From positions 8,128,001 through 8,192,000 of the forward strand of contig OZ244207.1 of NCBI GenBank assembly GCA_965216875.1: 64,000 nucleotides of DNA, given 5' to 3'. The notes under the pieces are model-generated. The model made no database searches and was not told where the DNA came from. It saw only the letters and a list, made by a program, of their open reading frames with translations. This document shows positions 45,301 to 63,175 of the stretch, piece after piece. This DNA comes from Rubripirellula sp. (lineage in GTDB: Bacteria; Planctomycetota; Planctomycetia; Pirellulales; Pirellulaceae). Numbering within the stretch: the first letter of the stretch is position 1; the number at the start of each line of letters is the position of its first letter. Position numbers and translations under genes: made by a program.

Positions 45301-48300
45301 TCGAGTTCCGACCGGGACTCTTTGATCAACCTCGATGGTTGGTCCAAGCTGGGAAACCACTTGAATTTCAGGAATCCCAGGGCCGAGATTGTTAAAAATC
45401 AGCTGCTGTATCTTTAGCTGCAATTCTTCCGTCGCTGCCGATCCGCTGGCAAGTAATCGATCCAATGGATCGACAAAGTCTCGACGGATATCGCCAACGA
45501 AGGTGCGGTCTCCGATACGGGCGTTTTTGTCGATCACGGGCAGTTGCCCGATCCCTTCTTTGCTTTCGATATGTTCTCCGATCTTATCGAGCATCGCGTT
45601 GAGTCCGTCGATCAGACTACGAAGATCGAATTTGAACAGGTCCTTGAGGTTTTCGGTGGTGAATGGATGTTCGATACGCAACGTCGACGGATGCGCGACA
45701 TCAACACTGACGGTCAAGGGAGGCAGAGCGGGAATCGCTGGGATTGCCAACTCTGCCGTCGCGATGGCGTTGATATCGAGGTCAAACTTGTCGACCAGTT
45801 TGGCAACGCCGTCATACTCGACACTCACTTTCCCTGTGGGTTTTGATTCGGGGAAGGTGATTTTCCAACTTGCTTCGCCATCTTCTTCGTCATAGCGAAC
45901 GAGTTCGACATCGGTGTTGCGTTCGATCCCGTCAACACGGATGGTCACACCATGATCGGCTGGAGTGGTTGTCGGGGTGTCGTCATCCGACAACCCCGCA
46001 AGCGCTGCTGGAACGTGGCTTAATTCAACTTCCTGGACGAGCGAGGAATACTCGATTTCGATTTTTCCGTTGATCTTAACGACTTGGTTGTTCGTATCCG
46101 TTTGGGTGATCTTGACACGATGTTTGCCCGCATCGGATTCGCCCTCTGGAATGATTTCAACCACGTGTTCGATTTCTTCCGCCGTTCCGTCACCATCCAA
46201 ATCGTGACGAACAACAACATCGCCCTCTGGCACTCTATCGAGGATGATCGTGCTGACACGAGCTCCACGCTTTGTTTGGGTGATATTCCCCGAGGAAGTG
46301 TCAACCACAGCCTCAATCTTTGCGATCGCGGGATATGTGACCTTGATGTCACCTGCCGGTTGACTGAATGCTGGGCCAATGAACTGGATCATCCATGGTT
46401 TTTCTGACTCATCGCTTGGAGCAATAATGTCGAAGGCGACACCTTGCTCTTGTGCGATGCCATTGATTTCAACGGCGACGCTTGATTCGTCGGTCGGAAT
46501 TCGCGAGAGCTCGAATTCTTGGACTTGAGTAGCAAACTTGATACTGACTTCGTCCTGACCGATCGGCTCCGCAAACGCAATGGTTGTTGGCTCGCTAGTT
46601 TCTCCAATCTCAACGACAAACCGCGTCGGTTCAAGCTTCGTGTTCCGTAGGAATCCGAGCTTGCGACGCTTCACAAAAACCTCGACCAAATCCGCATCCG
46701 CCGGTATTCCGGTGAGCGTGATCTCTTGATTCGATGCGTTCCCATCGATCGTGTGCCTTTCAGTCCTGACGCTGGACAATCGGTCTGTGATTTGAGTGAC
46801 TTGCTGACGCAGCTGGTTGAAGGGAATCGCAACGCCTGCGTTCAGCGGTTCCTGGCCGATTGTGTTGTTGTCTGCCGGCGTAAGATTCCGATCAATTCCA
46901 ACAGTCAGTGTGGCCGAAGCGAACGGCTCGTAAGTGACGATGACCGGATGTGCAGCAACGGGCGCCTTGTTGAACGTTATCGTTTTTCCGTTCAGCTCGT
47001 ATTCCGAACGAGGTACTTGCTCGTCGTCACGCGTAACACTAACAATCTCGGAGGGCACTTCGTCAAGGAAGAACGTCACCCGTTGGCCATCGCCAAAGAT
47101 TGTTTGCTCCGTTTCCGATGGCACGGCGTAGCGAACAAGAATCTCGTCCCCCGCGTTCGGGAAACTTTCAAGTTCCAAACACGCGGGCTCCGGACAATGA
47201 TCCAGATCGGCAGCCTCTACCTCGCCTTCAGAAGCAACCAGAATTCGATAGTCGGACTTATTCTGTTTTGATCCGTTGACGAATACCTCGGCAAAATCGG
47301 AGTCCTCCGTTTCGAAGGTCGCGGGTATGCGAGACAACGTGTACTTTTTCTTCAGCCCATCGGCTGCGAACACGTCGACTTGCTTGGGCGAAGCCGCCAA
47401 ATAGTTGACGTGGATGACGGCTTCATCAGCAGGTGCGTCACCGAAGCTGATTTTGTCACCCTCGGTAATCTTGTACGTGTTCGCGGGAACAGCCCGCCCG
47501 TCCACCGTCACGCTGACGACGCTATCAACAACAGTTGACAGGGTGAAGTCCGTGCCGCCGTTTCCGCGGAACACATCGCGTTCCGCTTGCCCAAGCCGAA
47601 CGGGTCCCTGCAATGACGCGGAAATGCCCAAAATACCAGCGGTAATCTCTAGGTCACTATCGGCGCCAAGTTGCAGTTCTAGCTCGGTTGGAAACCGATC
47701 CGTTGCGAGCACATAGGGCGTGAGGTCCGAGAAATTGAACCCGAACCCAAAACTCAAATCTGCGCCCGCGATCACCGTCACGTCACCCGCTGCGCCTACC
47801 GTGAACGGGCCGAGGTCCGGTGGCGCAAAGTCAAACGGAAGGTCTTCGGAGATGACTTTTTCAAATTGAACACCGACGAGAACAGCCGGTTGGAAACCGG
47901 GGCGTTCGTCATCGGCATCGACGTAGCTGAGCTTCAAGTCAAAAGTCGGATCGTCGTCTTCGAACCCAAGGGCTGCTTTAAACAAGCAACCAAGCTTGTC
48001 ACCAAGGTTTCCGCCCGACGTGATTAAACGGTCAAATGCGGAGTAGACGCTGACCATGCCGGCATAACCGGTCGGCAGTCCCGATTCCACAGCATATTCA
48101 ATCTGAAGGTTACCAGTCTTTTCGGCGTTGAAAGTGACTTTGACCCCTTCGGAGTCTGCTGTGACGTTCACATCGCCCGGCTCAATCGCTTCACCGTTCT
48201 GTTTCAGCTTCAGCACGGCGGAATCCAGCGTCGGGTACTGAGCTTGAATCAAACCGGTTTGTGGATCTGTGAAGCTCACTTTCTGAGTCGCAACGAAACG

Positions 48301-51300
48301 ATAATCGGTGAGCTTGAGTGGTTCGCCATCAAGCGTGACGGTGAAGGTGGCGTCGTCATCGGGACGCTGCTCGAGTTTGAGTTCGCTAAGTTTTTTGGCG
48401 TCGCTGGTCGTTTCGGTGTGTGGATTGCCTTCTACTTGATAGATGATTTCCAGCTGTCCGGTTTGCTTGTCAGCAAACTGAAGCGTGTACTCAGGAACAT
48501 ATTCGAAACCACTGGTGAGCTCCGTTCCGTCCACGAAGATTCGAACTTTCGCGGAGTCGGCCGCAACTGCGGAAAGGCTCATTTCTTGGACGTTACGCAA
48601 TCGCTGAGAGTCGGTCTTTATCGGCGTACCGGAGAGAGTCACCTCAAAGGGCTCACTGACATCTTCGATTGTCGCTTCATCGGTGGTTGTCTTTTCGATC
48701 AACGGAGAGATCATGCGCCCGATCGAACCAGAGATTCCAGTGAGGATTTTTTCAGTAGATAGCCGCACCGTTTGAACGCGGTCCGATTCCTTTCGCACGA
48801 TGACATCCAGTCCCGTTTCGCTCGTGCCGCTAAGTGCCTCCATCGCCGGCGCGTCGGAATCGAAAATGATCTCGAATGGGCCGCCGCGATCTCCCGTCAC
48901 CGATTCAACCACTGTCCTCTCTGTCTGATCGCTGGTCGTGAAGGTGCCGAACGCTTCGTCCAAAGCGATACGTACATCGGAGACCGAGGCATTGAACGGG
49001 ATCGATACGGTTTTCGAGGCTGGGATCTCGATGACGAAACTGCGTTCGGGAGATAGAGGTTCGAAAGTGAGCGTTTGAACCTCGGGCGTGCCCGTATCGT
49101 CGTCGTCATTCTCGCTGGGCGGGATTCCCTCGGTTGTGGTTGTGACAGTGACTTGCAGACGATTGGGGCTAGATGTCTTGATGGTTTCCACGTCACCAAG
49201 ATTGGACTGGAATGTGACCGTAAAAGTGATCAATTCATTGGCGTTTTCACGCACCACCGATTTAATCTTCCCTGGTCCAATAGCTGCCTCCAACGCTGCT
49301 TGCACTTCTTCAGCCGTCGCGTCTTGGCTAATCACGTCCGTTTGGCCGGCGAAACCAATCGCAAAACTGTGCTTCATCGTGGTAGACGCAAGCGTGACGA
49401 TTTGCACCTCTGATGTGCCCTTTGTCTTGTCGCCATGCGTTTGAGTCTTCACGGTCACTTCGACACCCTTTGAGCTGAGTCCCGACAGTGGCAACAAGTC
49501 GTCTTTTTGAGGATGAAATGTGATCGTGAATGGGCCGCCGTCGGCACCCGTTACCGACGTGACGACGTTTGCGTCACTGCCGTCGGGAAGCTTGAAAGTA
49601 CCCAGCTTGCTTTGTAGCGCCGTGGTAACCTCCGCAGCGCTAGCCATGATCCCGATCGCTGAACTGGTTAGCTCTCGTGATTCACTGCCACTCTCGTCGG
49701 TGAACTTCAACCGAAAGGTCTGGTTTTCACCGGGCGTCAGATCGACACCGATCACCGATCGCAGCTCGTTCATCGTGCTGCGAAGTGTTGACTTGACATC
49801 CTCGGGCGCCTGCAGCCGATGGATTGCATCCTCCAAAAGGTCAGTCGCACGGCGCAATTCCGGTAGATCCGGCCCGGCTAGTATGTCATCAGCCACCTTC
49901 AGAATGCTGTCTGTGAAATCGAGGATCTCGTTGGGCGTCTTGTTCAAGATCGGCACGTCCGAATTCAGCCCGGTCAAATCACTGTCTTGCAATAGATCAA
50001 CAAGGTTTCGCAAAACCGTCACCATGTCGGCTAGCGAAAAGTTGCCAAGGTTTTCAGTGAACTCTTTGAAAGAACTGGCGTCGAACTCGACCTTCGATCT
50101 GCTTCCCGTGTCAGACTCGGTCAGGCTGAACGCAATCACGGGCTGGGCCGTGCTGGCTGGCAATACATCCAACAGCGATGACTCGATCGGTAAGGTTCCG
50201 CTACCGCGGAAAGTGAATTCGGGAGTCACTAGCCTGCGTAGCGAACTGCGGTTCAATTCACGCAGTCTTATCTTTCCGTCGTTTTGCGCACCAACGCCGG
50301 GATCAGATAGATTGATGGCCGCGGCTACCTCAAAGTCCAATTCGCCGTCAACAAGGCCGATCTCGAAAATACTGATCGCTGCCGCCAGATCGATATCATC
50401 ACTCTCAACTTTTGATTTCGCCGAAATCGCGCTCGCCCCTGGCGATGCATCGATAAAGAAGCGATCGAGTCGGGTTTCTCCGTGCAATGGTGTGCCGTCG
50501 ATCCGATCAGTGCTGAGCGTGATGACTTGCACCTCCGAAACCACTCCATTGATTCCGGTTCCCCCTTCGGTCTCTGTGACGGTGGTCGCTTTGATACGAC
50601 TGTTACTGAAGTTCGCCGACAGCGGTCGGACGTTGCCTAGACCGCTGGCGAATGTCACCGTGAACGGCCCTCCGACATCGCCGACAACCGATTCAATGTT
50701 GCCGGCACCCACGATCGAGTCGAGTTCGGCCCTCAAATCCATCGCGGTTGCGTTGACGCTCAGGCCTGCTGTGGTTCGCGGGATCTGAGCGACGCCAGGC
50801 TCGTAGGTCAATTTGAACGTACCATCCAATGTCGCGAGGATCCCGAGGGCTGCGGCGACCGGGGAAACATCGATTCCGTCGCCGACCGGCTCGATCTTGA
50901 AGACGCCGCTTGGCGTTGGGTCAGAGGAGTCATGGATTCGAAGTGATTTGTCTTCAACGTTGATGGTCGCTTTCAGGCCATCGATTGCGTCAAACTTGTC
51001 CATGACGTCGCGAACGGTCGTCGATCCGTCGAGGCTAATGCGGTGGTGAGTCCCATCGCGAAGTGTCACCAGCAGATCATCTCGGTCACTCTGCTGCGCA
51101 TCACCAAAACCGAGGACACTGGCATTGGAGATGGAAAGAGAATTCAATCGAAAACGCCGCAACTCATATTCAATCCGCAGGTCCCCGTTGATTCCACCGC
51201 TCTGATGAAACGTAATCTTTACCTGGTTCTGTTCATTGACATCGACTTTGTAGTCCTCCCCGATTCGCAGCTGGGTTTCACCGACCTTAACGTCAATCGA

Positions 51301-54300
51301 CTCAAGATCGACATTCGTTTGGTCCAACACATGTTCGTCCAGCCCGCTAGCAGGCTTTGCATCGACAAACTTGTTCGCGTCTCCAAGTGTTTGGCCCGCA
51401 CTCAGTCGCAACCTCTCCGACGCGTATTCGAACCGCAGCTTGCCGGTAACGCCGTCGGTGTCATCAAAAACCACGGCGATCCCATCAACAACGTTGTAGT
51501 CACGCCCCAATTCGAGTCGTTGTCCGTCCAGGAAAACGACCACTGAATCTGGGTCGGCTAACGGTTCCTCGAGCGTGATCCGAACCTCACCTTGCACGTG
51601 TTTGACTTCAACTGCCGTTCGAGAAAACTCGAATGCCGGTGATTCGTTGCCGTCTTCATCCGAGATTCCGGAGGAGAATCCAGCGTCTCTTAGGGGCTGC
51701 AACAACGCTTTGTTCAAATCACGAACAAGATCGTCTAGGTCATGGTTGTCCTCGGTGTCCGCTTTTGAGAGTGCGACCTCAATGTTGCGTTCGTCATTGA
51801 GCGCTAGCGTTAGTGCCAAGTTGTCATTCAGCTTGCCGTCGGATGACGCCGGCATGCTGCCTGTCATACCGATGCGAGTCGAAACGCCGCGACCCGCATT
51901 CAAATCCGCCAGCAACGTGTCGCCGTTGAGCGTGAAGCCTGCGCCAAGTTCGCCGAGTTCGACCCCCAGTTTCAGTTCGATCCCCGCGGCGGCGCTGAAG
52001 GTGGCGTCAGCACCACCGACCACCGACAACGGCTCGTCGTCACCAATATCAAATGCCGTCCCAAAATCGAGCGAGATCTCTTTCGCAAACTCCTTGCCGA
52101 GCTTTAGATTCCAAAACAGCGTCTTCAGGTTGTCGTCATAAGAAACCTTTGCTTCAAAAGGGGAATCCGCGGACAGGACTTTGGCATGCTCGTTGACGAC
52201 ATCGATCAGACCCTGGAGGTTGTGCGCGCGGAACGCTGCCTTCGACTCGATTCCAGCAATGGGAATTCCAAGTGACTCGGCAGAGTTTTTGGTTTCTTGT
52301 CCGTCATCAAAACCGAGGGGCGCCGCCCCCGCAATCGTGACCGAATTGACACCCGGCGCGATCACTGAGAACTCCAACAGAGCCCCATTGGCAACGGCTA
52401 ACAACTGGGCGTCCAAGCTCGCATTCGCTAACGCCTGATTCACGTCATCAACCAGCGCATCGATCGTCAAATTGTCGGCAGTAGCGGATTCGTTTAGCCG
52501 CACCTCGACAGGAGCGTCGTCATTGATTTGAACATTCAACAATAGCGTCTGCGAAAGTTGAGTTGCGGGCGGAGACTGGGCTGTGAGCGTCAGTCCGGTA
52601 ACTGCCAAAGTCAACGCCTCGCCAGGCTGGGTCGTCGCAAGTACAAGATTTGCCGCGTTCGATGGACTGTTTTCAACAACGGCTGCAACCCGCCAATTCG
52701 GCGCCGAAAGTGAGATCCGCTGAGCTTCGCCCTGTTCGCTCGACCCCTCATCCAGCGTGATGATCGTCGCGTCAATGACGGGATTGTCGACCACAATTTG
52801 CAGCGTATCCATGTCGCCAAGACTCTCGTCGAACCTGACGATGAAAGGCCCGCTCGGTTCTCCTTCGACTTCGATCTTATCTTTACCTTCAGCATCTCCA
52901 ACCAACCTTATCAACGCAGATTCCACTGCTTCCTGGACTTGGGACGCGGTCGCGTTGACAGAGATTGCGTCAGTCGTCGCGTTGCTCTCGTTGCGCGTCA
53001 CCGTCAATCGGAAAGTCCCGGTCGCGCCGATGCCGGCGACCTCCAGCGAGGCATTCAAATCTTCTGCTAAGTCGCTCAGACTCTCGTTGGTCACATCTTG
53101 CGAGATGGAAACCCGTACCGGGTCGTCGTTCTCAAGGGTCACTACAAACGCCCCGTCCTCCTTCAATACGCCCTCGTGCACAATTTCGTTGCCTTGATTG
53201 TCGAGGGTGACCAGCTTAGGAACATCGATAGAAACTGATGCCGTTTCGTAAAGCGAGCGGGCCAGATCCGTCAGCGTGTCCGTGAAACGAATGACGTCAC
53301 TTGTCTTGACATTGACGTACGGGATCCCGCCCTCGGGGTCCAGTTCCGGCGCTACATCGTGGAGCGCAGTTCCCAAGTTCACAAAAAAGGTCGCGATCGT
53401 CTCCGGAGATAGGTCAGCGAAATCGGGAACAGCCCCAAGGTTCTTGGCCTGAATCTGCATCGCTGTTGTGTCGAATAGTGCCGTGTCCGGATTACTTGGC
53501 GGGTCTTCTTCCTGGACGACATCGACGATCGACAACGCGGCGTTCGCAAGCGTCAAAATCCCGCGCGCGTCATTGAGCGGCAGTTCAGCAGAGAAAGTTC
53601 CATCACCAGAGTCTGCTGCGTAATCAACCTTCAATAACGATTCATATCCTCCCGCATCAGCGAGTTGGCTGTACGTCAAGGTTGGTCCTTGAGCGTTAAC
53701 ATTGCCCAGGTCGCGGCGAATGATGGCAGTCGTTTCCAATTCGGCTCGACCACCTTTGACCTCCAACCCAAAGAATCCATAGTCGACTTCGAATCCGAGC
53801 GGACCAACGGCTGTCGCCTTATCGCCAAAGCCGAAGTTGGTTGCGATGACGTTTTCTGAGGGACGGTCCGCAATTTCGATCGAGACGATTCCGGTCTCCT
53901 CGGATCGCAATCGAAGTTTGCCATCAACGATCGATGCGTCGATTGCCTGGGGAGGCAAACCATTGGATGCCAGTGCGCCGCCCAGCGCAGATCGAATATC
54001 GTCGATGAGCAGACTCGAGGAACCACGCACGACTGGAACGTCGATGAGGGCCTCGCTGTTGTCGCCACCCCCTGGTTGATTCCACGTGACTTTCAAGCCC
54101 AACAACGTAGACTTGCCAACCTCGAATAGGTCTGGGTTAAGATCCTGTTCAGCAGTCAACGCAACCTGTTGAGATAGTCTTGCCGTCGTTTGCAATCCGA
54201 ATTGTTTGTCACGCAGTTCTGGATCCGCGTTTTCCGTATCGAGGTCGAATCGTATAAAGAAGTCGCTCTCGTCAACCGTTTCACCGGACAGATCAAGTCC

Positions 54301-54882
54301 GAAGGTGAATCGGAACTTCAAACCCAATTCAAGCGGGATCTTTCCTGCTCGCGCGTCGACTTCCAGTGGCAGCTCGTTGTGGTTCCGACTCAAGTCGATT
54401 CCGACGTCTTCGGTGCGGCTCGCTTCCACGAGCAGGCTGAATGTGATCTGCTCAGAATCAACCGATGTCGAAGGCGATTCGGTCTTGAATTGAACCTTTG
54501 CTGAACGATCCAGGCCGTCGAGCTGTGAGACGAGTTCATTGGGCGTCCGCTCCCCCGAATCCTTGTTTGCCTCGAGGAATTTGACCGTCGGCTTGGTCAG
54601 ATAAGTCGAGATGATGCCACCAACATCAAGTGACGCGCCGATCGACGTATCCAGAAATGGGAGGTTTTGACTGAGCGCACCAAAATCATCCATGCTTTCT
54701 GAGTAGGTCGCGAACTGCTGAAGCCCCTCGATAAGGGCATCTCGCTGGGGCGACGTGAACGGATTGTCAGCATTGAGCAGGTTTCGTTTCTCAAGCGACT
54801 CAATCATTATCCGGCGGCGGTTCCGCCTATTTTGTCGGCGTGCTTTGCGGCCAGTCACGCGAGAAGGGGCCTGTTTGGGCAT
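30316..54882 (-). CDS. Giant (~8,190 aa) extracellular mosaic protein: LEPR-XLL-type leader, beta-module repeats, RTX Ca-binding repeats, FG-GAP, ELWxxDGT-like propeller, F-type lectin, LamG, GEVED, dockerin-like end
   Basis: One uninterrupted 24.6-kb ORF. Contains RRRIMIESLEKRNLLNA, many GGxGxD nonapeptides, GDFNGDG/GDLNNDG, RTDCCLDR, LDDLRIW...YYHFD, DYGDAP...GEVED and GDQDGNGMVD...DADNDG. Start placed at MPKQAPSR. Confidence 0.9.
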   Translation of the reverse strand: MPKQAPSRVTGRKARRQNRRNRRRIMIESLEKRNLLNADNPFTSPQRDALIEGLQQFATYSESMDDFGALSQNLPFLDTSIGASLDVGGIISTYLTKPTVKFLEANKDSGERTPNELVSQLDGLDRSAKVQFKTESPSTSVDSEQITFSLLVEASRTEDVGIDLSRNHNELPLEVDARAGKIPLELGLKFRFTFGLDLSGETVDESDFFIRFDLDTENADPELRDKQFGLQTTARLSQQVALTAEQDLNPDLFEVGKSTLLGLKVTWNQPGGGDNSEALIDVPVVRGSSSLLIDDIRSALGGALASNGLPPQAIDASIVDGKLRLRSEETGIVSIEIADRPSENVIATNFGFGDKATAVGPLGFEVDYGFFGLEVKGGRAELETTAIIRRDLGNVNAQGPTLTYSQLADAGGYESLLKVDYAADSGDGTFSAELPLNDARGILTLANAALSIVDVVQEEDPPSNPDTALFDTTAMQIQAKNLGAVPDFADLSPETIATFFVNLGTALHDVAPELDPEGGIPYVNVKTSDVIRFTDTLTDLARSLYETASVSIDVPKLVTLDNQGNEIVHEGVLKEDGAFVVTLENDDPVRVSISQDVTNESLSDLAEDLNASLEVAGIGATGTFRLTVTRNESNATTDAISVNATASQVQEAVESALIRLVGDAEGKDKIEVEGEPSGPFIVRFDESLGDMDTLQIVVDNPVIDATIITLDEGSSEQGEAQRISLSAPNWRVAAVVENSPSNAANLVLATTQPGEALTLAVTGLTLTAQSPPATQLSQTLLLNVQINDDAPVEVRLNESATADNLTIDALVDDVNQALANASLDAQLLAVANGALLEFSVIAPGVNSVTIAGAAPLGFDDGQETKNSAESLGIPIAGIESKAAFRAHNLQGLIDVVNEHAKVLSADSPFEAKVSYDDNLKTLFWNLKLGKEFAKEISLDFGTAFDIGDDEPLSVVGGADATFSAAAGIELKLGVELGELGAGFTLNGDTLLADLNAGRGVSTRIGMTGSMPASSDGKLNDNLALTLALNDERNIEVALSKADTEDNHDLDDLVRDLNKALLQPLRDAGFSSGISDEDGNESPAFEFSRTAVEVKHVQGEVRITLEEPLADPDSVVVFLDGQRLELGRDYNVVDGIAVVFDDTDGVTGKLRFEYASERLRLSAGQTLGDANKFVDAKPASGLDEHVLDQTNVDLESIDVKVGETQLRIGEDYKVDVNEQNQVKITFHQSGGINGDLRIEYELRRFRLNSLSISNASVLGFGDAQQSDRDDLLVTLRDGTHHRISLDGSTTVRDVMDKFDAIDGLKATINVEDKSLRIHDSSDPTPSGVFKIEPVGDGIDVSPVAAALGILATLDGTFKLTYEPGVAQIPRTTAGLSVNATAMDLRAELDSIVGAGNIESVVGDVGGPFTVTFASGLGNVRPLSANFSNSRIKATTVTETEGGTGINGVVSEVQVITLSTDRIDGTPLHGETRLDRFFIDASPGASAISAKSKVESDDIDLAAAISIFEIGLVDGELDFEVAAAINLSDPGVGAQNDGKIRLRELNRSSLRRLVTPEFTFRGSGTLPIESSLLDVLPASTAQPVIAFSLTESDTGSRSKVEFDASSFKEFTENLGNFSLADMVTVLRNLVDLLQDSDLTGLNSDVPILNKTPNEILDFTDSILKVADDILAGPDLPELRRATDLLEDAIHRLQAPEDVKSTLRSTMNELRSVIGVDLTPGENQTFRLKFTDESGSESRELTSSAIGIMASAAEVTTALQSKLGTFKLPDGSDANVVTSVTGADGGPFTITFHPQKDDLLPLSGLSSKGVEVTVKTQTHGDKTKGTSEVQIVTLASTTMKHSFAIGFAGQTDVISQDATAEEVQAALEAAIGPGKIKSVVRENANELITFTVTFQSNLGDVETIKTSSPNRLQVTVTTTTEGIPPSENDDDDTGTPEVQTLTFEPLSPERSFVIEIPASKTVSIPFNASVSDVRIALDEAFGTFTTSDQTERTVVESVTGDRGGPFEIIFDSDAPAMEALSGTSETGLDVIVRKESDRVQTVRLSTEKILTGISGSIGRMISPLIEKTTTDEATIEDVSEPFEVTLSGTPIKTDSQRLRNVQEMSLSAVAADSAKVRIFVDGTELTSGFEYVPEYTLQFADKQTGQLEIIYQVEGNPHTETTSDAKKLSELKLEQRPDDDATFTVTLDGEPLKLTDYRFVATQKVSFTDPQTGLIQAQYPTLDSAVLKLKQNGEAIEPGDVNVTADSEGVKVTFNAEKTGNLQIEYAVESGLPTGYAGMVSVYSAFDRLITSGGNLGDKLGCLFKAALGFEDDDPTFDLKLSYVDADDERPGFQPAVLVGVQFEKVISEDLPFDFAPPDLGPFTVGAAGDVTVIAGADLSFGFGFNFSDLTPYVLATDRFPTELELQLGADSDLEITAGILGISASLQGPVRLGQAERDVFRGNGGTDFTLSTVVDSVVSVTVDGRAVPANTYKITEGDKISFGDAPADEAVIHVNYLAASPKQVDVFAADGLKKKYTLSRIPATFETEDSDFAEVFVNGSKQNKSDYRILVASEGEVEAADLDHCPEPACLELESFPNAGDEILVRYAVPSETEQTIFGDGQRVTFFLDEVPSEIVSVTRDDEQVPRSEYELNGKTITFNKAPVAAHPVIVTYEPFASATLTVGIDRNLTPADNNTIGQEPLNAGVAIPFNQLRQQVTQITDRLSSVRTERHTIDGNASNQEITLTGIPADADLVEVFVKRRKLGFLRNTKLEPTRFVVEIGETSEPTTIAFAEPIGQDEVSIKFATQVQEFELSRIPTDESSVAVEINGIAQEQGVAFDIIAPSDESEKPWMIQFIGPAFSQPAGDIKVTYPAIAKIEAVVDTSSGNITQTKRGARVSTIILDRVPEGDVVVRHDLDGDGTAEEIEHVVEIIPEGESDAGKHRVKITQTDTNNQVVKINGKIEIEYSSLVQEVELSHVPAALAGLSDDDTPTTTPADHGVTIRVDGIERNTDVELVRYDEEDGEASWKITFPESKPTGKVSVEYDGVAKLVDKFDLDINAIATAELAIPAIPALPPLTVSVDVAHPSTLRIEHPFTTENLKDLFKFDLRSLIDGLNAMLDKIGEHIESKEGIGQLPVIDKNARIGDRTFVGDIRRDFVDPLDRLLASGSAATEELQLKIQQLIFNNLGPGIPEIQVVSQLGPTIEVDQRVPVGTRLRLDDEDVLVVAARQIGEARFELTLENSLVASHRLNPRVGRKDPLVLLEAVNAGSTEILVSQNVSVGTALRLADTETVRVIGVDDEGDQFRLSLSLPIQNAFTASTSVDERLQLYSSVEAGAKALQVNQSVTIPDGGELSLILDEGNPTEESIIVTGVDEQDGIFVLTLLAPLAKDHFFAPTISDPEGTSALELLYDIQQRPDSLEVDQEVSVGVELILDEGGESEETIRVTKVDQTPSGYKLSLAGGLSNDHAAPTVRIADAIRTQLDGAAVPAEQTIVVGPYADSTNVFNTGAIISINQDPEFFEVMGVEDLGNGLFELRLSEPLARGYAEGSTVTDGFATTLLFDPATPVVQTIDVEGDIPSGATIVIGTGEKLESLTVVSADGSTLSLERPLLHQHDDETSVIVRNGHDSSGNAGLNILSLDPLESLDVDGKQSLSFLDVPVNLDLNTLSLDALLHIDKTYSLAADFDVGLDALVFDIETSGGVEVDVSVEAFLGFGVSVEDGFYFQLLHDDPAVDDDGREIQLEVDARLAPGTELTVDLFGLKLNATNHQDKAGPYPIDTSIDSDAGGSGLAALLQEDDAFGVNTVDSTKEIDDGTGNGFLITLNKRLGDVPPLEVTFIRTDANNVVTETTTTATIVQEGNNDGFDQSQWTSEVQRVIFPPAEENVTYTYSLTLSKENTGVRAAAFVDIADLEADTESPGKLTFSEFRADGKSFRDFLSFGIEAQANVDLDLTANVNPSFPELTTRFVVGWGFCNTFDENDPTCELDLNNDGDTGDEGETLQSGEFSKPSVAFNDLTLDIGQFLTKVAKPVLDGVDKYIGPMKPLLEFLNQEVPGLSAIAKLAGEAPITNLQLGILASAGSDPAKLQKALRQSRRAQKVLDLLIKITEFSADIEDLGDSNLKIEFGDYPIGQDQDLSDANAKVTATSEDRVDFDAVLAQLGSKPDDDDATKEKKSKTRSALQKMKDGALSGGLGIKLPILSDPQSIIKLLTGQAVDADLVQWDIPRLELEVPFEQKFGPVVPAVPLFVTFGINLQTFLDLSIGFDTSGIASDNFADGFYFGDRQDVDEGDDVDEFGFGFEAFIGAELDLLIASAGVEGGIRGDIGFNWNDPDGDGKVYLDELERTFNLPTHPATSQGACVFDISGGLDAFLRLVYETPFFDGEVPIVEEEIFSFSHTCGAGLAHVTDGEDGFADGTLVLHAGQFAGQRQAGGSEDIAEDFLLEEIADGVIRVTAFEFEEVHSGVKQILFHGGEGDDKILLASDTTVPVSIPATLIGGPGADTLGGGIGNDTYVFGDDWGIDTIVERVDGGHDTLNFASATQAVNASVTNAGVTAQDAFGDLVLAGNVEGFVGGISSDTLHVSKESGDGTNQWSVDGLNRGRVDDFGFEFSGVENLLGSNQVDVFVLSNDAGVSSSIDGLGGFDTIHYAYASDNPVTVDRDNKAGTNVSRYRNIEQFIGGSSGDDLLIGESADAVWYLTGDDQGHVDDPATFRFEGFENLTGGNEADHFMLEPGSAISGLADGGSGSDTLDLTGLRESLTFVLDADNAGQVSSTRLLSTFTNMESLSGGAKDDAFRFENGVQLTGTLDGHGGGRDVVDYAPWTTGVTVNLQDGIRSNGHGIVNVEQLLGGLGNDVLTGNDSNNLLVGRHGNDELYGGAGNDILWGGMQLLSVDELDLDDRTNFVDPPNFAEAVHSQFGYFPNTPASFGGRSSDGTIGDGQDKLDGGNDDDFLFGGGDDDELNGGSGVDYVDGGVGNDVINGGAGDDLVRGGANDDEIHGGDGIDQVYGDAGRDMLYGDAGNAADGSLLGQRLWGGDGIDFLHAFAPSNDVADEQAEIGDELHGGSGGDWLYGNLRAEILVGNGGNDFLAGDWLAGPGYARNTRANLDGGADDLRGGSGEDQLFGGGGDDTLRGGADSDWLEGQNHNDQLIGGAGIDIMVLDVDPSYEPAANESFDGHGDELDEGPDDNATDIMLIEGTTDHDLIRLLKSDQSVDLLRAEYSSNAEGASGTEGTNGPTRAIEARWRDATGPLVEQFRVSGLLGNDTLEFVRGDKALDLSELVDRSNDFIGVLDGGPGNDTLIGSAGRDRLDGGRGSDTLYGLQGDDRLWGDSGRGLGSAGDLDVLFAGGGNDDLIGGQGRNELYAWSFHPQGTFATSLPHLADDPPTQFGVFFDPTTGQWSDHSDGTLELEDTGLNRMLGNDEDDLLFGGTRLDFLYGRGGNDTLFRADGTDLESVDGGLAGDEWKQYARETDKVWYVGGTNVDDVITVDFVTEPGLLTNHHLVTRLTNNDGNFSFAAQLQLDFDAIDRDGNPIWNSADIAFAIGLTGLESVAATGQLSEDAIFSLRIDDSETEVTIPFAEAADNTNVDDLLTDLVAALTAAGISDQVEARIDNGAISLLRIRDSNGNGGASTLEVTSANSVASDELHLEVGQTGVPRPVPVPELSRLLPVEDDFLAILIDGLDGNDQITVGPTVQKTVWIDAGAGDDRVEITGGNSILIDQAEYGSRNDSPAQAFVLPTLDPNESRLLSGLTLDSPDDVDWFQFEISTPLDNLITSSISPDDGLIAEVFELDGVTNVALAALDVGRPFLLRVQSDSIPTIYDITFNLTDGVAPKEVDLAQRVDLNRRDVILGGAGNDILSGGMGEDWIFGGPDNDVLTGGRDRQAPDLLFGEGGDDTFQLITDALPLLKNPDETFVPSFSDRFDGGFEDEIQGDRVLFLGGDFDRNGIPVPDFAALRYNRLLHRYEFTNLVWDINGQGFISADDAVPATLVASADLGDPNLGDDAMFLLSIDGGDEVPVTVRHKGGDGGTFDNRDIRDLVADMNAALDNAGLSGTVSAGFDGQRLTFQTIAAGASHTLTFSSPNEAAEQLGFGNGIDPQPLTVTGTDNVFEQQYLLYTTIDVERTVIDTRAGDDIFRGDSEYKFPGQSSEWGIDPGDFQQRALIAALDIRGGDGRDVLFGGALADTIDGGPDADLINGGQEDDLVYGGAGGDTLAGNETAVRAKGDGSGAEIGVDNARPFRAGDTIQVSAHTAIISAVDYRSNTLTLHNPIAWADQDEVRRKTPISNPGDRSALLPFTFDLAAPFIAPSTDSSREGINLSTITQAELDDSFASKVFALEGSDTNQQLGAMRSIGDFNGDGHNDFIARGQSHSYLLFGPLSLDRVDDILAHANIVIEHAALGLPANRLGDLNGDGLADLVFMKPSTPQDGVEVPLTEIRVVFGGVDNWPRQWGQSFLEGINIDRTLRLNDVQLNPSDPQVSVLNYYGDVSAEGLPHSDLLISSSSNDRTLLGSFQESVLTNPLGAYAQAGEQIFNFSDSSVHRLGDHSNIRIESADDNNGVDKFVGFTSLDGTLYFGAKVDGVMFEQPLWTVDPGSANARPLRGLTANALQASLNSLLDGSGTWQIDSAPLDVTGNGDSLYTILRVVGNAANGGRLDPYVLLEYQLTPGNVEHDGIPTALIDLGNNPDAIRMQNVGEGILLSGTELVENEHVTAFWLYTPSAGVNGVEKFISNSTDVPDDAVAIDGSVYFGFDDGNQTGKELYRLAPSHPSPQLVADIFPVEDFGSSPRDLTVANGVLYFTAVSSTQGRTLWSFDPVSEQLSEAPFVGNPSNLVAFRDELYFTAASQNAEFSVWRFDGSTATLVAEHVDPGLPMLTDQDILMVPRTQTSGWPGFWIYEPETFGYIVPGSLLSDTATPRRADHSTDISAIQRKTLSLESELSSRLSVSVPGDLNGDGLDEIGAVFGVGEAAIAQVTGTERMELVPGDTVAFNITLNGVSQNIQIAVKSESRFDFLTAVQGQLLTIHGGELAASSSSGKLRFSTTTLKGPAVTLQVADEPTGASVTGFRIPQLASGGVDLDRHAFAVFAGTTSEQVKTIEISQRQNKHLSIAEVQAFELGTNSNVALNGSASATSVWDGPFGLATASRAIDGNTDGNHVNGSVFHSGAAGVGETLTITLDNPTILSEIRIFGRTDCCLDRDDALTVTMRDANGNVVSDPIDFGLDETFVERIELPTHSVGAIIPTPLRDASDDFQIQVVGDLNNDGYAEIAWTDDTGLHVYQGGSTITTELNALLHVSTTTDRLSATSGDFNDDGETDLALTSWDAMATHLFWSVGTSDAVVHLTLAEADLIIPVAGLTTSGPESSAPGIDLNGDRIDDLIVNAPNATGGIDRIKQAAGRAYVIYGAPQRISLPPESQVTDLTNRTVTGSGDFLVDIGNGQPFVFRESNRKLALQFNSDGGFDDSLMLPSEVLDNREELTIEFSLGLAPGTDIHTIISGASGPLNNFSLVVQPDSDRPNARLLDPRFGSRDWTLPLTVIDGLPHHYALVRGESDEPMLYVDGVATELHSSQPSSNADPTFQIDEVVVGQQGSGLFPLRGVLDDLRIWHEARTEDQIRASVGQPPAGDEPLLAAYYHFDGPQDEQLRDATPNAFHATIRHAAPTAVVVPQPWYRFTTLGDGQEGNKITVVGGAAELFDDLGQRLSPPSRVIDLRRWPAGTFLIKVTPDDPMRPFGIEILPPLAGFSHAASDRDELRGGDGDDRITGSEDLDRLFGESGLDEFTAEQVEIRDFDFGRELRMDADQSEHSTIQPSPPIDPVVYRAGVVPANGDASNAAIALEIAVTDGHTVGTQVIHETIYQSDLVRLAQQFSDYGDAPASYPVTADQGGAVHGAIGPRLGDSRDTEVDGQPSNDALQDDIEGADVGNEDGVMFGPLTDSDSLAAVNINLQNAANAKVDAWLDFNGDGDWDDIGEKILDNVPVIAGWQTLNFTVTDAVVTGNTFARVRISNEGGLSVGGMAISGEVEDVLVTISPGPPVVDQVIINDGDPQRSGIKSVRVEFNRIVDIGSDAFLFRRIGSSDGVVPIPVIDNSSGISVVDITFLPGGSVNLGGGLLDGDYELRIDASKISSFSLALDGNADGVAGDDHLFGAVDGFYRKYGDQDGNGMVDLYDFAAFRHAFGSNEMDPRYVEGLDADNDGMIGPDDFTFFRLNLGK

Positions 54883-54948
54883 ATCAAAACGCTGCAATGA
54901 GAGAGGTGCATTACGAGTGTTTCGCGGCGAAACGCCCGTCACGAAGTT

Positions 54949-54985
54949 ACGCACGAAGCCGACAACAACAGGGAGGCGAATTTTT
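54949..54985 (-). promoter_or_regulatory. Candidate ECF promoter of the giant gene
   Basis: Minus strand AAAAATTCG-CCTCCC-N14-TCGTGCGT, 66 nt upstream of the ATG, with the same boxes and spacing as 55784-55811. Confidence 0.65.
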
Positions 54986-55102
54986 CAGAAAAGACGCCGC
55001 GAGACTGTCGTCTGGCTGTTTCTCAATCGACGAGCTAGGAAATGCCGAAACCAGCAATCCTCAGCTATGATTGTGCGGGGGACTCCCTTTGGCTTTGATT
55101 CG

Positions 55103-55699
55103 ATGCACGACGACAACAACTCCGATACGACTCAAATCTTGTTAGAGCTCTGTAATCGTCAACCCGATGCCGCCGAACGGTTGATGCCAGTGGTCTACGA
55201 CGAACTCAAGGGGTTGGCGGTTGCCGCGATGCGGCGCGAACGCCCCGATCACACACTTCAGCCAACCGCTCTGGTCAATGAGGCTTTTCTGAGACTGATT
55301 GATCAGGAAAGAGTCAAATGGCGCGGCCGAGCGCACTTCTGTGCCATCGCAGCCACCATGATGCGACGCATCCTGGTCAACCACGCTCGAAATCGCGTGG
55401 CCATGAAACGCGGTAACGGAATCAGCCGAATTCCGCTACACGATGAACTCGTTGCTGTCGACTCCGCCAGCGAAGTCGATGTGCTCGATTTTGATCAACT
55501 GCTAACTGAATTGGCCGAACTGAATCCGCGGCATGCCAATGTGATTGAGCTCCGGTTCTTTACCGGGCTAAGCATCGCCGAGACTGCAGAAGTGTTGGAC
55601 GTTTCCGAGTGGACGATCAAGAACGACTGGCGAGTGGCCCGAGTATGGTTGTTGATGAAACTGAACTCCGAGTCAAAAGCCGAGAATTTGCATCGATGA
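55103..55699 (+). CDS. ECF sigma factor, kinase-associated TIGR02999 / ECF43-like
   Basis: TQILL, LMPVVYDEL, HTLQPTALVNEAFLRL, AHFCAIAATMMRRILV, ELRFFTGLS and DWRVARVWL. Confidence 0.9.
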   Translation: MHDDNNSDTTQILLELCNRQPDAAERLMPVVYDELKGLAVAAMRRERPDHTLQPTALVNEAFLRLIDQERVKWRGRAHFCAIAATMMRRILVNHARNRVAMKRGNGISRIPLHDELVAVDSASEVDVLDFDQLLTELAELNPRHANVIELRFFTGLSIAETAEVLDVSEWTIKNDWRVARVWLLMKLNSESKAENLHR

Positions 55700-55775
55700 T
55701 CGCCAGATTCTCTCAATCTAGATGGGTTAGGAATCGGATTCGCTTGACACTTTCGCGACAATCAACGCGAGACAC

Positions 55776-55811
55776 AAATTCTACCTCCCACTTTCGAACT
55801 CACTCGTGCGT
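55776..55811 (+). promoter_or_regulatory. Candidate ECF promoter of the kinase gene
   Basis: AAATTCTA-CCTCCC-N14-TCGTGCGT, 96 nt upstream of the kinase ATG. Confidence 0.65.
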
Positions 55812-55907
55812 TATGTGCGGTGGATAGCGTGCAACGTTCAGTCATGTCTCACAATTGCCAGCTTGCATTGACTGACGGCCGGGTAAACAAGCGAACGGGG
55901 GTGACGG

Positions 55908-58900
55908 ATGTCAACTGCTGATGCCGAATTCTATCGACGCGCTTCTGAGATCTTTTTGAAGGCATGCGACCTTGATCCGGATCAGCGTCAAGCATTGATG
56001 AGGCACGAATGTGCCGACGACCAGATGCTGGAGTATGTGCAGTCAATGATCGAGCAAGACGCACAATTGAGCAGCATCCCGACCGAGACAGTCCCGAGTA
56101 TCAAACAGGGCGACATCGCTACGGGGTGGGAAGGCGAGAATGACACGCTTGGCATCGAGCCGGCGGAGGCGTTTCACGCGAGTGCTACGTCAAGAAACGG
56201 AAGTTCGCTGGCCGACTACGACAACCTGAAGGAAATCGCCCATGGTGGGATGGGCGTCATTTACCGAGCCCATCAACGCAGCTTGAACCGGGACGTGGCG
56301 ATCAAGATGATCCGCGTCCGTTCTCATCTTTCGGCGTCGGATCTGGAGCGATTTCAGCTCGAAGCCGAGGCAACCGCCAAGCTCAATCACCCAAATATCG
56401 TTCCCATCTACGAAATCGGTGGACATGAAGGGCAGCCGTTCTTTTCAATGAAGTTGATTGAGGGTGGCAACCTTTCGAATTGGCTGAAGCAAGAACACGA
56501 TCTTCCATCCAAGGTATTGCTGCTGATCAAGACCGCCTTGGCGGTTCACTATGCCCATCAAAACGGTGTGCTTCATCGTGACATCAAGCCAGCAAACATT
56601 CTGATCGATTCCTCGGGTGAACCTCACATCAGTGACTTTGGATTAGCGAAACAACTGGATGGAGACGTCGAGCTTACCATCACCGGCCAAATCATGGGGA
56701 CGCCGGGGTATCTCTCCCCCGAACAAGCTCGCGGACAAAACTCGACGATTACCACCGCGTCGGACATCTATAGCCTTGGCGCAGTGCTCTACGAGATTTT
56801 GATCGGCCAACCGCCGTTCAAGTCAGATTCAATGATCGAAACGATCCGCAAGATCGTTGACGAAGCACCGCAGCGACCGTCGCAATTGAACCCAAGCGTC
56901 GACCTTGACCTGGAAACCATTTGCCTACGTTGCCTGGAGAAATCACCGACGGACCGGTACGCGTCGGCGGAAGCACTCGCATCCGAGTTGCAGCGATGGA
57001 TGCGAAATGAGCCGATCCTCTCGCGACCGATTACCGGCAGCGAACGCCTACTCAAATGGGCTCGCCGAAAACCCGCGCTCGCAACGCTCTCATCGGCAAT
57101 GTTACTTACCTTCGTTGTTGCTGGGTTTGCCGTCATCTGGAAATGGCGCGACGCCGAGTATCAGCGTGGGGAAGTTGTCATCCAACGGCAGCAAACCCGC
57201 AAGTACCTGTACATCGCGCACATGAACATCGTCCAGCAGGCCTGGGAAAACGGGATGGTGCACGAGGTACGACGTCTGCTTGATCGACACCTTCCGGTCG
57301 AAGATGAAGAAGACATCCGCACATTCGAATGGCATTTTTACGATCGGCTAAGCCGAGATGTGCTGAACCGAGCCAGCATGGACTATGGCGACATTGTCAC
57401 ATTCGTGGAAGCGTCGCCAAACGGTGATGAAATCGCAGCAACGGGCAACGACCACAGAATTCAGATATGGGACAAACAGTCCGCCAAACGCAAGTACACA
57501 CTGACGCCAGGACTTGGCCGAATCGAACGCCTGCACTATTCGCCCGATGGGAAAACCCTTGTCGGAGTTGGCCACCGGAGTTTTCGAGTTTGGAGAAAGT
57601 CCGGAGGCAAATTAAACGACGCGTTTACCGGTGCGACAGAGGATCGGTTTCTTACCAAGCTATCTCACGACGGCCGGTGGATTGCCGCCCCGATCAGGGG
57701 AAACAGCATTCAAATTTGGAACACTGCGGATCCCTCCGACACGCACATCGTTCCAGTCGGCGGCGGTGGCGTGATCGAGCTGCAATTCTTGCACGACAAC
57801 ATCCATTTCATTTCAGCGAGCCAGGACGGAGCGATCAAAATCTGGAACGTTGAATCCGCGACTGCCGTTGCCGAAATTCACGTCAGCGAGTTGCCGTCGA
57901 GTAAAGGAAATTTGAGGTCGCTTGCGATTTCAAGCAATGACAAGAGCATTGCGATTGCCGCTGATAACGCGATCAGCCTTTACCAACTCTCTCCTGATTT
58001 TGAGTGGACTTTGACCCGCGAGATTGGCCGACTCGCGAATACGATTGAGTCTCTCATACCTGTCGGCGATGGCGGGGTTTTCGCCGTGGTCGCCGGCGAA
58101 GCCACCACGCTTTGGGAATTCGAAACGGGAAAGCAATGCGGGACAATAGGCGATCCGACCCAATTTTCAGCTTGGTTCGATTCCTCGGCCAAGAGCAATC
58201 AATTTGCCACAATTGGCAGTGGCAATGCGGCGCATATCTGGGATCCCACGACGGGGAATTCGGTTGGAAAGATTCAAGGTCACAGTAACGCCGTCTACGC
58301 GATGGACTTTGTTGATGATGGATCCATCGTCACCGGAAGCCGGGACCATACGATCCGAGTCTCCAACGCGAACAGCGGAGAAATTGCTTCGACCTTCCGC
58401 GGCCATGAAGGCTGGATTTGGTCCGTCAACTATTCGATGGACGGGCAATTGATCGCATCGGGCAGCGTCGATGGAAAGGTAAAGGTTTGGGACCTGAGTT
58501 CTGGCACCGAATCATGGGAGGTAGAAGCAAGCTCTCGAAGCATTCAGTTCGTCATCTTTTCGCCTGACAATCGCACGCTCGCGGCAGCGGGGCGAGACAA
58601 GATCATTCGTTTGATTGACATCGAATCGCGAAACGTGATCGGCTCACTTGAGGATCACCATGCAGATGTCAACTCGCTTAGTTTTTCTTCCGACGGTCGC
58701 TACCTTGCCTCGGGAAGCAATGATCGATCCGTGATCGTCTGGGACGTCGCCAACCAGTCGGTCAAACATCGACTTGACGATTGTGGCGGAGACGTTTGGG
58801 CCGTCGCTTTCGCGCCGGACGATCAAAGCATCGCTTTCGGCGGTCGCAATAAGCAGATTCAAATTTGGGATCTTTCGAAAGTCGAATCGGTGCCTGATGC

Positions 58901-59276
58901 CGTGTCTTCGATTGCACAGTTGAATACTGACGTTACCAGTCTGATGTTTTCTCCGAATGGAAACACGCTATCGGCGACAATCGGCGGTGGTGCAATCCTA
59001 TTGTTCGACTATGGATCGCGCGAACTCATGAATGAGTTGACTGGCCACTCCAGTGATGCGATGTCAACCTCCTTCTCCCCTGATAGCCGCACATTGGTTT
59101 CGGGTTGTAGCGACGGAAAGATTCGTTTCTGGAACCTCGCGACGTTGCAACGCACGATTGCAATCCAAGGACATCCGCAACACATTCATTGCGTGCGATT
59201 CTCGCCTGATGGTTCGTCAGTCGCCTCGGCAAGCTGGGATGGGACGGTCCGCCTCTGGTCGGCGGCGGATCGATAA
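55908..59276 (+). CDS. Hanks-type Ser/Thr protein kinase with one predicted TM helix and C-terminal WD40 repeats
   Basis: GGMGVIY, VAIK, HRDIKPANIL, DFG and GTPGYLSPEQ; hydrophobic MLLTFVVAGFAVIW; many GH...WD/WN repeats. Confidence 0.95.
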   Translation: MSTADAEFYRRASEIFLKACDLDPDQRQALMRHECADDQMLEYVQSMIEQDAQLSSIPTETVPSIKQGDIATGWEGENDTLGIEPAEAFHASATSRNGSSLADYDNLKEIAHGGMGVIYRAHQRSLNRDVAIKMIRVRSHLSASDLERFQLEAEATAKLNHPNIVPIYEIGGHEGQPFFSMKLIEGGNLSNWLKQEHDLPSKVLLLIKTALAVHYAHQNGVLHRDIKPANILIDSSGEPHISDFGLAKQLDGDVELTITGQIMGTPGYLSPEQARGQNSTITTASDIYSLGAVLYEILIGQPPFKSDSMIETIRKIVDEAPQRPSQLNPSVDLDLETICLRCLEKSPTDRYASAEALASELQRWMRNEPILSRPITGSERLLKWARRKPALATLSSAMLLTFVVAGFAVIWKWRDAEYQRGEVVIQRQQTRKYLYIAHMNIVQQAWENGMVHEVRRLLDRHLPVEDEEDIRTFEWHFYDRLSRDVLNRASMDYGDIVTFVEASPNGDEIAATGNDHRIQIWDKQSAKRKYTLTPGLGRIERLHYSPDGKTLVGVGHRSFRVWRKSGGKLNDAFTGATEDRFLTKLSHDGRWIAAPIRGNSIQIWNTADPSDTHIVPVGGGGVIELQFLHDNIHFISASQDGAIKIWNVESATAVAEIHVSELPSSKGNLRSLAISSNDKSIAIAADNAISLYQLSPDFEWTLTREIGRLANTIESLIPVGDGGVFAVVAGEATTLWEFETGKQCGTIGDPTQFSAWFDSSAKSNQFATIGSGNAAHIWDPTTGNSVGKIQGHSNAVYAMDFVDDGSIVTGSRDHTIRVSNANSGEIASTFRGHEGWIWSVNYSMDGQLIASGSVDGKVKVWDLSSGTESWEVEASSRSIQFVIFSPDNRTLAAAGRDKIIRLIDIESRNVIGSLEDHHADVNSLSFSSDGRYLASGSNDRSVIVWDVANQSVKHRLDDCGGDVWAVAFAPDDQSIAFGGRNKQIQIWDLSKVESVPDAVSSIAQLNTDVTSLMFSPNGNTLSATIGGGAILLFDYGSRELMNELTGHSSDAMSTSFSPDSRTLVSGCSDGKIRFWNLATLQRTIAIQGHPQHIHCVRFSPDGSSVASASWDGTVRLWSAADR

Positions 59277-59303: not shown

Positions 59304-60383
59304 TTACGACCCAAGTGAAGTCCGCAACGCATCGCTGCCGCTGATGATGTCGATGGGCGGAAGTTTGGTTTCGTATTCGTAGGGTGGGTCGATCCAACGG
59401 AAGTCGTTGGGGTACAGGCGTGCGACCTGCGAGATGATTTCTACCGACGTTGCGTAGGGGCGAAACACGGTCGCATCGGTGACTTGCAGGGACAATCCTT
59501 CGCAAACTTGGCCGCTCCATTTGTCGAAGGTTGGTCGGAAGCGGATGGGCAGAAAGGTGACACCCTCAAGTTCAGTCGCCTGCAATGCGGCAAGCAAACG
59601 ATCCGAATCAATGAACGGTGCACCGACGATTTGAAACGGAATGGTCGTGCCTCGCCCCTCGGACAGATTGGTTCCTTCAAGAAGGACCTGCCCCGGATAG
59701 ACAAGGGTCGATTCAAAGGTCGGCAGGTTCGGAGAAGGAGGGATCCAAGCTCGACCCAATTCAGTCCAAAGGTCTTTGCGATTCCAGCCCGTCATCTCTG
59801 TGGTGGAGAGGTTGGCTCCGACTCCGAGTTCTTCGTTGAAGTAGGTCGCGAGCTCACCGATCGTTAGAGCATGTCGCATGGGAATCGAAGCGCCACCGAC
59901 AAAACTCTCGAATCCCGGGCGCAGTGGCGGTCCCTCGACAATCTCGCCGCCGATCGGGTTGGGACGATCAAGCACATGGACAGAGACTTCATGCGCTGCG
60001 CACGCCTTCATGCATTCCAGCAACGTCCAGACAAAGGTGTAGACGCGGGTGCCGACGTCTTGAAGATCAACCACGAGGCAATCGATGTCTCGTAGCATTC
60101 GCTCAGTGGGTCGCCGCGTTTCACTGTAAAGACTGTAGATTGGGACGCCAAGTTGCTCGTGGTGATCGTGGTCCGACTCAATCATGTTCGCTTGGGCGTC
60201 ACCCCAAAGGCCATGCTGTGGCGAAAAGAGCGCCGTCAGTTGGCGCGGCAACGCATCGTTGATCAAGTCGCATGCAAACCGAAGCTGGCGGTCGACCGAC
60301 GCGCGGTTCATCAGCACACCGATCCTCGCATCTCGCAGCTCGGGTGGCGGTTCGGCAACGAAGTTTTCCAGGCCAAGACGCAT
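59304..60383 (-). CDS. namZ: NamZ/DUF1343 family exo-beta-N-acetylmuramidase, no signal peptide
   Basis: LFSPQHG, YSLY, DLQDVGTRVYTF, LDRPNP, PSPNLPT and LEGTNLSEGRGT. Confidence 0.82.
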   Translation of the reverse strand: MRLGLENFVAEPPPELRDARIGVLMNRASVDRQLRFACDLINDALPRQLTALFSPQHGLWGDAQANMIESDHDHHEQLGVPIYSLYSETRRPTERMLRDIDCLVVDLQDVGTRVYTFVWTLLECMKACAAHEVSVHVLDRPNPIGGEIVEGPPLRPGFESFVGGASIPMRHALTIGELATYFNEELGVGANLSTTEMTGWNRKDLWTELGRAWIPPSPNLPTFESTLVYPGQVLLEGTNLSEGRGTTIPFQIVGAPFIDSDRLLAALQATELEGVTFLPIRFRPTFDKWSGQVCEGLSLQVTDATVFRPYATSVEIISQVARLYPNDFRWIDPPYEYETKLPPIDIISGSDALRTSLGS

Positions 60384-60424
60384 TTTGCGGCACACTTTGA
60401 TTGGTTAAGCAAGAACGGCTGGGA

Positions 60425-63126: not shown

Positions 63127-63175
63127 ATCAAGAAGTCCTTCAACGAGGGGATAGAATGAAGATTGTGAACAAGCG

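Follow-up and report, generated by a model that had tools for sequence, protein, structure and literature searches.

Matching promoter-like sites on both sides of an ECF43-type sigma factor gene suggest a local regulon of a kinase and a giant surface protein in Rubripirellula

Planctomycetes are rich in kinase-activated ECF sigma factors, and a locus of Rubripirellula sp. raises the question of which promoters a putative member of this group recognises. In the 64,000-nucleotide stretch of DNA analysed here (contig OZ244207.1, positions 8,128,001 to 8,192,000; "the window", within which features are numbered), a sigma factor gene stands between a divergent gene for a giant surface-type protein and a gene for a kinase (Table 1), and a short bipartite motif is found on each side of it. 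The original prediction read this motif as a -35/-10 site recognised by the sigma factor encoded between its two copies. A literature search found no mapped promoter for planctomycete kinase-activated ECF sigma factors; Wiegand 2020, Iyer 2020, their supplements and Todor datasets S1-S2 may already contain motifs for this group.

Table 1. Genes and predicted promoter elements at the locus, in window coordinates.
Feature	Position	Strand	Remarks
Giant surface-type protein	30316..54882	-	Divergent from sigma; ORF 8212 aa from GTG 54954, likely start ATG 54882
Site A, predicted -10 box TGCGTAA	54947..54953	-	17 nt past -35 box
Site A, predicted -35 box CCTCCC	54971..54976	-	Faces giant gene; register from relatives
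A/T tract, possible UP-like element	54978..54985	-	Directly upstream of site A; function inferred
ECF sigma factor, TIGR02999/PF07638 (ECF43-type), 198 aa	55103..55699	+	Profile matches
AAATTC tract upstream of site B	55776..55781	+	Read from sequence
Site B, predicted -35 box CCTCCC	55784..55789	+	Within 208-nt sigma-kinase gap, where family sites also occur
Site B, predicted -10 box TGCGTTA	55807..55813	+	Register from relatives
Hanks-type Ser/Thr kinase, 1122 aa, C-terminal WD40 repeats	55908..59276	+	Catalytic motifs intact

The sigma factor matches TIGR02999 at 199 bits (cut-off 126) and PF07638 at 177.5 bits (E 3e-52). It carries a QPTA motif, with Thr55, where other ECFs have DAED, and Thr55 is invariant in 30 aligned sequences; in RpoE numbering it has N84, K171, N172 and R175, within a helix region reading SEWTIKNDWRV for the last three. 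A PDB search returned no structure of a close relative. The kinase has a single hydrophobic helix (residues 392-410, by hydropathy only). The giant protein combines a planctomycete extracellular N-terminal motif, RTX calcium repeats, FG-GAP, laminin G, GEVED and a weak C-terminal dockerin, with the PF07595 and dockerin matches falling slightly below Pfam cut-offs; its longest reading frame opens at a GTG that falls at the -10 box of site A, hence the downstream ATG is the likely start. The genome as a whole contains three TIGR02999-like sigma factors, 98 kinase-domain matches and 104 sigma-70/ECF matches above cut-off. One paralogous TIGR02999 sigma gene (at 4142452) has a CTGCGG-N17-CGCATAG site facing a divergent ECF sigma gene (G000:C1:4142195, minus strand), a widely conserved arrangement that suggests a sigma cascade. 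Convergent on the focal kinase, two tandem NamZ-type exo-muramidase genes and a sodium:solute symporter gene occupy 59304-63390 of the window (minus strand).

The motif CCTCCC-N14-TCGTGCGT occurs at 54976-54949 on the minus strand (site A) and at 55784-55811 on the plus strand (site B), and there is no third copy in the window; none of 100 window shuffles matched it. The two copies are exact, as first described, their 14-nt spacers are indeed unrelated in sequence, and each points towards its gene, the giant gene in one case and the kinase in the other. AAATTC, noted before both boxes, is present at both sites, however its offset differs (1 nt at one, 2 nt at the other). The genome scan proposed with the original prediction returned sites A and B as the only exact copies with a 14-nt spacer in 8.26 Mb, with one exact copy each for the 13-nt and 15-nt spacer variants, both within ORFs of the other strand. 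Three one-mismatch copies exist at spacer 14 genome-wide, not commoner than at other spacers (0-6).

As the motif was defined from its own two copies, a fair test has to consider any bipartite match between two such regions. We therefore counted any exact bipartite match of at least 14 bases, with boxes of at least 5 and a gap of 10-20. This was reached in 14 of 3000 dinucleotide shuffles of the two focal regions, in 42 of 6000 upstream regions paired at random and in 14 of 1145 neighbouring region pairs (focal pair included). The match between sites A and B is above chance, being equalled in approximately 0.5-1% of control pairs, yet it is not proof by itself, and with control pairs matching as well at this rate the comparison with relatives had to decide.

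The genome-wide scan did not bear out the expectation that the motif would allow a wider regulon to be predicted. Intergenic, gene-facing matches with up to two mismatches numbered 7 at spacer 14 (two of them the focal sites) versus 1-7 at other spacers, hence near-matches are not enriched, and no wider regulon was found among them. Two of the inexact copies are recorded here in their own right. CCTCGC-N14-TCGTACGT, with two mismatches, lies 45 nt before a gene for a 3039-aa planctomycete surface protein (G000:C1:3577137, minus strand) and could be a third target or chance; an intergenic one-mismatch copy with an A/T tract (G000:C1:1571770, minus strand) faces antisense to two plus-strand genes. 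Other functions for the focal motifs were also considered and rejected: the reverse complement GGGAGG is not followed by an ATG, GTG or TTG in the sigma frame, as a Shine-Dalgarno role would need, and neither motif shows a sigma-70 promoter-like site, a terminator or an Rfam match.

Among 134 related loci with a kinase, 89 had the kinase coupled to the sigma gene (gap <35 nt), and 38 distinct gaps of 35-400 nt were used for motif discovery. Gibbs sampling of these gaps yielded TG(A/G)GG-N16-YCGCAYTG, a promoter-like motif which can also be written TGRnnn-N17-CGCAYTG, at 11.5 bits compared to 8.6-9.6 in four shuffles. When the 38-gap matrix was applied to 25 held-out gaps, a site at p <= 0.02 was found in 16, and the sense strand scored above the antisense strand in 24. 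Residue-base and spacing counts were based on the 50 of 83 loci with a kinase and a gap that had one unique -10 match, the other 33 being left out. In 31 of these 50 family sites the -35 box starts 23 nt upstream of the -10 box, which is the distance from the start of CCTCCC to that of TGCGT at both focal sites. The generic family matrix ranks site B at 63 of 624 and site A at 112 of 573. In one relative (L287, G315:C284), a KNDW-helix sigma gene is followed by an apparent Flp pilin/Tad cluster, not a kinase, with TTTCCC-N16-GGCATC in the gap.

In a tree, the focal sigma factor falls in a KNDW-helix clade on the side of a subgroup with an SKRTVESEW helix, away from most gap-type sigmas. This subgroup, 43-52% identical to the focal sigma, is the closest one with a motif: an A-tract followed by CTGCGG-N17-CGCGTA stands upstream of the sigma gene, facing a divergent gene, in 23 of the 29 loci examined, in the same position and direction as site A. 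The 8 nt upstream of these sites are 72% A+T, and one member (L384) reads CGCGTAAC versus TGCGTAAC at the focal locus. Under the subgroup's -10 matrix with the first base left free, the predicted -10 boxes rank first of 214 positions at site A and first of 202 at site B. Both sites are thus likely to be read as CCTCCC-N17-TGCGT(A/T)A in the family register. The promoter reading of the original prediction is backed by these comparative data, while its register is not: TCG becomes the end of a 17-nt spacer and the -10 box is TGCGT(A/T)A. The sites have what defines an ECF -35/-10 promoter, namely two boxes at the family's fixed distance, facing genes, in non-coding DNA, and transcription starts are predicted near 54940 (minus) for site A and near 55820 (plus) for site B.

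Nearer relatives of the sigma factor are known as proteins (53-81% identical, with W in the helix). A search of 401 family, 401 phylum and 67 genus genomes, together with two collection scans, gave no close-orthologue DNA above 58% identity, and no second example of the exact CCTCCC-N17-TGCGT(A/T)A motif was seen among the relatives' loci examined. In 53 loci (partly redundant) that share K171/R175 and K(N/G)DWR, mostly with coupled kinases, the predicted motif had no clear copy nearby. One genus (L298-L303) gave matches close to its sigma genes, but these lay inside a coding gene and were rejected. A separate feature of K(N/G)DWR-helix sigmas (L191-L215) is a shared TAAGCT or TATACT after TTCTCC, 40-60 nt upstream of the sigma gene, which resembles a housekeeping promoter; the focal window has TATGAT at 55066-55071.

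The sites could be real and regulatory, and still be read by another of the approximately 100 sigma factors of this genome, or by a transcription factor that co-regulates the kinase and the giant gene. The number of sigma-70/ECF matches gives this some room, as do the departure of the motif from the main family consensus, visible in the generic ranks above, and the two-mismatch copy before the 3039-aa surface protein, where no sigma-kinase pair was seen within 5 kb. We nevertheless regard it as improbable: position, 23-nt geometry and -10 sequence all agree with TIGR02999 relatives, the motif is not enriched elsewhere in the genome, and an evident sigma gene follows none of the seven intergenic near-matches at spacer 14.

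If the sigma encoded between the sites reads them, its DNA-reading residues should be reflected in the boxes. Positions 84, 171 and 172 set the specificity of ECF sigmas, and 175 also has a base-reading role (Todor et al., PMC7776599). Family sigmas were numbered after RpoE by an alignment made by eye, and loci with N84 were deliberately sought with a codon pattern. Across the 50 loci, position 2 of the -35 box carries G in 32 of the 39 sigmas with R172 versus none of 11 without, CCC ends the -35 box in three of seven sigmas with K171 versus none of 43 without, and a first -10 base other than C occurs in 14 of 15 sigmas with N84 versus five of 35 without. In the focal sigma the three residues are N172, K171 and N84, and its motif shows C at position 2, a -35 box ending in CCC and a first -10 base that is not C. 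The focal boxes therefore largely fit these residues. A residue-conditioned matrix built from other loci placed site B first of 624 (63rd with the generic matrix) and site A 12th of 573 (112th with the generic matrix), and a matrix variant chosen afterwards ranks both first. Other choices were likewise made after seeing the data: which five K171 loci entered the matrix, that the first -10 base was left free, and how the surface-protein pattern used below was written. The residue-base links involve two or three independent pairs on well-supported branches, all in the same direction and not significant (low power).

The fit is also not complete. The first -10 base in family N84 sigmas is G, not T, in 16 of 17 cases, with one T case (L255), and N172 favours A at -34 (PMC7776599), from which the focal N172 motif departs, and this counts against the reading. 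In favour of the reading, N84 accepts TG (0.19) in the published data where D84 does not (0.02) (PMC7776599). Our results agree with the general ECF promoter code in that positions 84, 171 and 172 track promoter bases and linked genes come under the local control of ECFs; at 84 and 172 the preferred bases are not those seen with the test sigmas of Todor et al. (PMC7776599). Their promoters were found via autoregulation upstream of the sigma gene (Todor et al. 2020, PMC7776599), whereas the informative site here lies downstream of it.

The layout of the locus, with one site in the sigma-kinase gap and a second before a divergent surface-protein gene, recurs in other genomes. Among 48 gap-type loci with enough upstream DNA to be compared for repeats of their own site, three (L356, L260, L231) have a divergent surface-protein gene, recognised by the planctomycete extracellular N-terminal motif, and in these the gap site is repeated before that gene at 13, 11 and 11 of 13 bases, respectively. 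A repeat of at least 11/13 bases before the divergent gene was thus seen in three of three surface-protein loci versus one of 45 others, with the protein pattern for this gene class written after the three had been seen. Foreign sites matched as well before the three surface genes in 0, 0 and 2 of 49 cases. A search with the predicted pattern gave 57 matches, and none of the 30 inspected precedes a surface-protein gene.

Of 400 family genomes, 15 gave homologues of the giant protein's N-terminus. Thirteen have upstream DNA; as raw counts, nine of these have a kinase there and ten a kinase or TIGR02999 sigma. In L317 and L321 the sigma gene is divergent from the giant gene, with TGACGT-N17-CGCATG approximately 130 nt before the latter; in G034:C5 (L288, L304) a giant gene of >8300 codons, a sigma gene (57% identical) and a gene for a 1112-aa kinase stand in tandem, a locus that is uninformative because the giant start is off the contig. 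In L322-L334, giant homologues lie beside sigma-kinase pairs that by eye seem to belong to several different ECF groups, as though the giant target had been retained and its regulator module swapped.

These comparisons bear on the suspicion that sites A and B match by chance, or are left over from a small duplication, with the true sites elsewhere. Candidates for the latter are CTAGATG-N14-TTCGCTTGA, 31 nt past the sigma stop, and CGAAACA-N14-CTCTCATTG, immediately before the giant gene. Both top the generic family matrix at this locus, the first is as far from the sigma stop as is usual in the family, and control pairs equal the focal match at the rate given above. Yet the two weak sites are unlike each other and score at background (8.4 and 8.8 bits, against a background of 9.4), the unrelated focal spacers are unlike a duplication, and matrices from other loci pick the focal sites. 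None of the sites of 50 other loci matches both focal regions at 10/13 or better, compared to 12/13 for the locus's own site. We judge this explanation slightly less credible again than a different reader. Least credible is that the same sigma uses the same sites in another register, with CGTGCG as the -10 box, T-32 and C-31 inside CCTCCC and starts 2 nt further upstream: it would fit the general ECF rules (R175 to T-32, K171 to C-31) and the preference of N84 for CG in Todor's test sigma, where it is accepted best (0.40) (PMC7776599), and TCG is conserved at both sites, but the distance becomes 21 nt versus the family's 23, C falls at -13, which family N84 sigmas avoid (14/15), and the match to CGCGTA is lost.

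We conclude that sites A and B are likely to be promoters read by the ECF43-type sigma factor whose gene they flank, and predict that they drive the kinase and the divergent surface protein of approximately 8,200 residues. Given the observed motif and its geometry, the identities of the genes and the recurrence of both layout and spacing in relatives, the best reading is a regulon that appears to be local, with two promoters and with feedback via the kinase.

The nearest characterised systems are EcfK/PknS of Xanthomonas citri and EcfP/PknT of Vibrio parahaemolyticus, both ECF43, which share the Sigma70_ECF domain (PMC13147305, PMC8999054, PMC7826278), the replacement of DAED by a Thr motif (QPTA here, consensus QTTA; PMC13147305) and a Hanks kinase with one membrane helix in position +1. 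The focal locus differs from them in its planctomycete-type host, in the 208-nt sigma-kinase gap with a predicted promoter, and in its predicted target, a giant surface protein rather than T6SS or polymyxin genes. Whereas ECF43 kinases typically have extracytoplasmic TPR, the focal kinase has WD40, with no TPR among the best 25 of 55 Pfam families, and the predicted motif published for ECF43 (GTC at -35, CAG at -10; PMC7826278) is absent from the focal sites and from the family motif. We call the sigma ECF43-type on sequence features: it shares with the group the PF07638 domain, the kinase in +1, the Ser/Thr motif for DAED and the one-helix kinase, and departs from it in the TPR sensor and the GTC/CAG promoter. 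The narrow ECF43 group was listed as Proteobacteria only and later widened to >900 members (PMC7826278). The planctomycete kinase-linked group ECF62 also has a kinase in +1 with one membrane helix, and WD40 fused in some subgroups (PMC7826278); unlike these, the focal kinase shows no N-terminal zinc finger in its translation or Pfam matches, and the sigma has the Sigma70_ECF domain described for ECF43. ECF62 promoters have been reported as not conserved (PMC7826278).

EcfP and EcfK are reported to be inactive until a membrane kinase phosphorylates them (PMC8999054, PMC13147305). By analogy, the focal sigma would be made in an inactive form; the membrane kinase, signalled via its WD40 part, would phosphorylate Thr55 of QPTA, and the phosphorylated sigma would then bind RNA polymerase. 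The active holoenzyme would start near 55820 to give more kinase and near 54940 to give the surface protein. As no motif copy faces the sigma gene, and own-site matches facing the sigma gene were found in only one of 42 relatives in an autoregulation search, positive feedback would run through the kinase. Read-through past the sigma gene could possibly provide a basal supply of kinase because no terminator-like site lies between the sigma gene and site B.

The kinase-gated sigma switch as such is not new, and the regulon described here comprises only two genes. The finding would tie one kinase-linked sigma to a giant surface gene and offers a direct test of what such sigmas turn on, and a promoter downstream of the sigma gene would explain why upstream searches missed it. 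More broadly, we lean slightly towards the view that planctomycete TIGR02999 sigma-kinase modules may be private switches for single surface proteins, each with its own promoter variant written twice, in the sigma-kinase gap and before the divergent surface gene, and readable from three or four sigma residues. The focal locus, whose sigma helix bears a tryptophan and whose sites have CCTCCC instead of TGnnnn, would then be an extreme re-coded member, insulated among approximately 100 sigmas, and modules of this kind are potential orthogonal kinase-gated switches.
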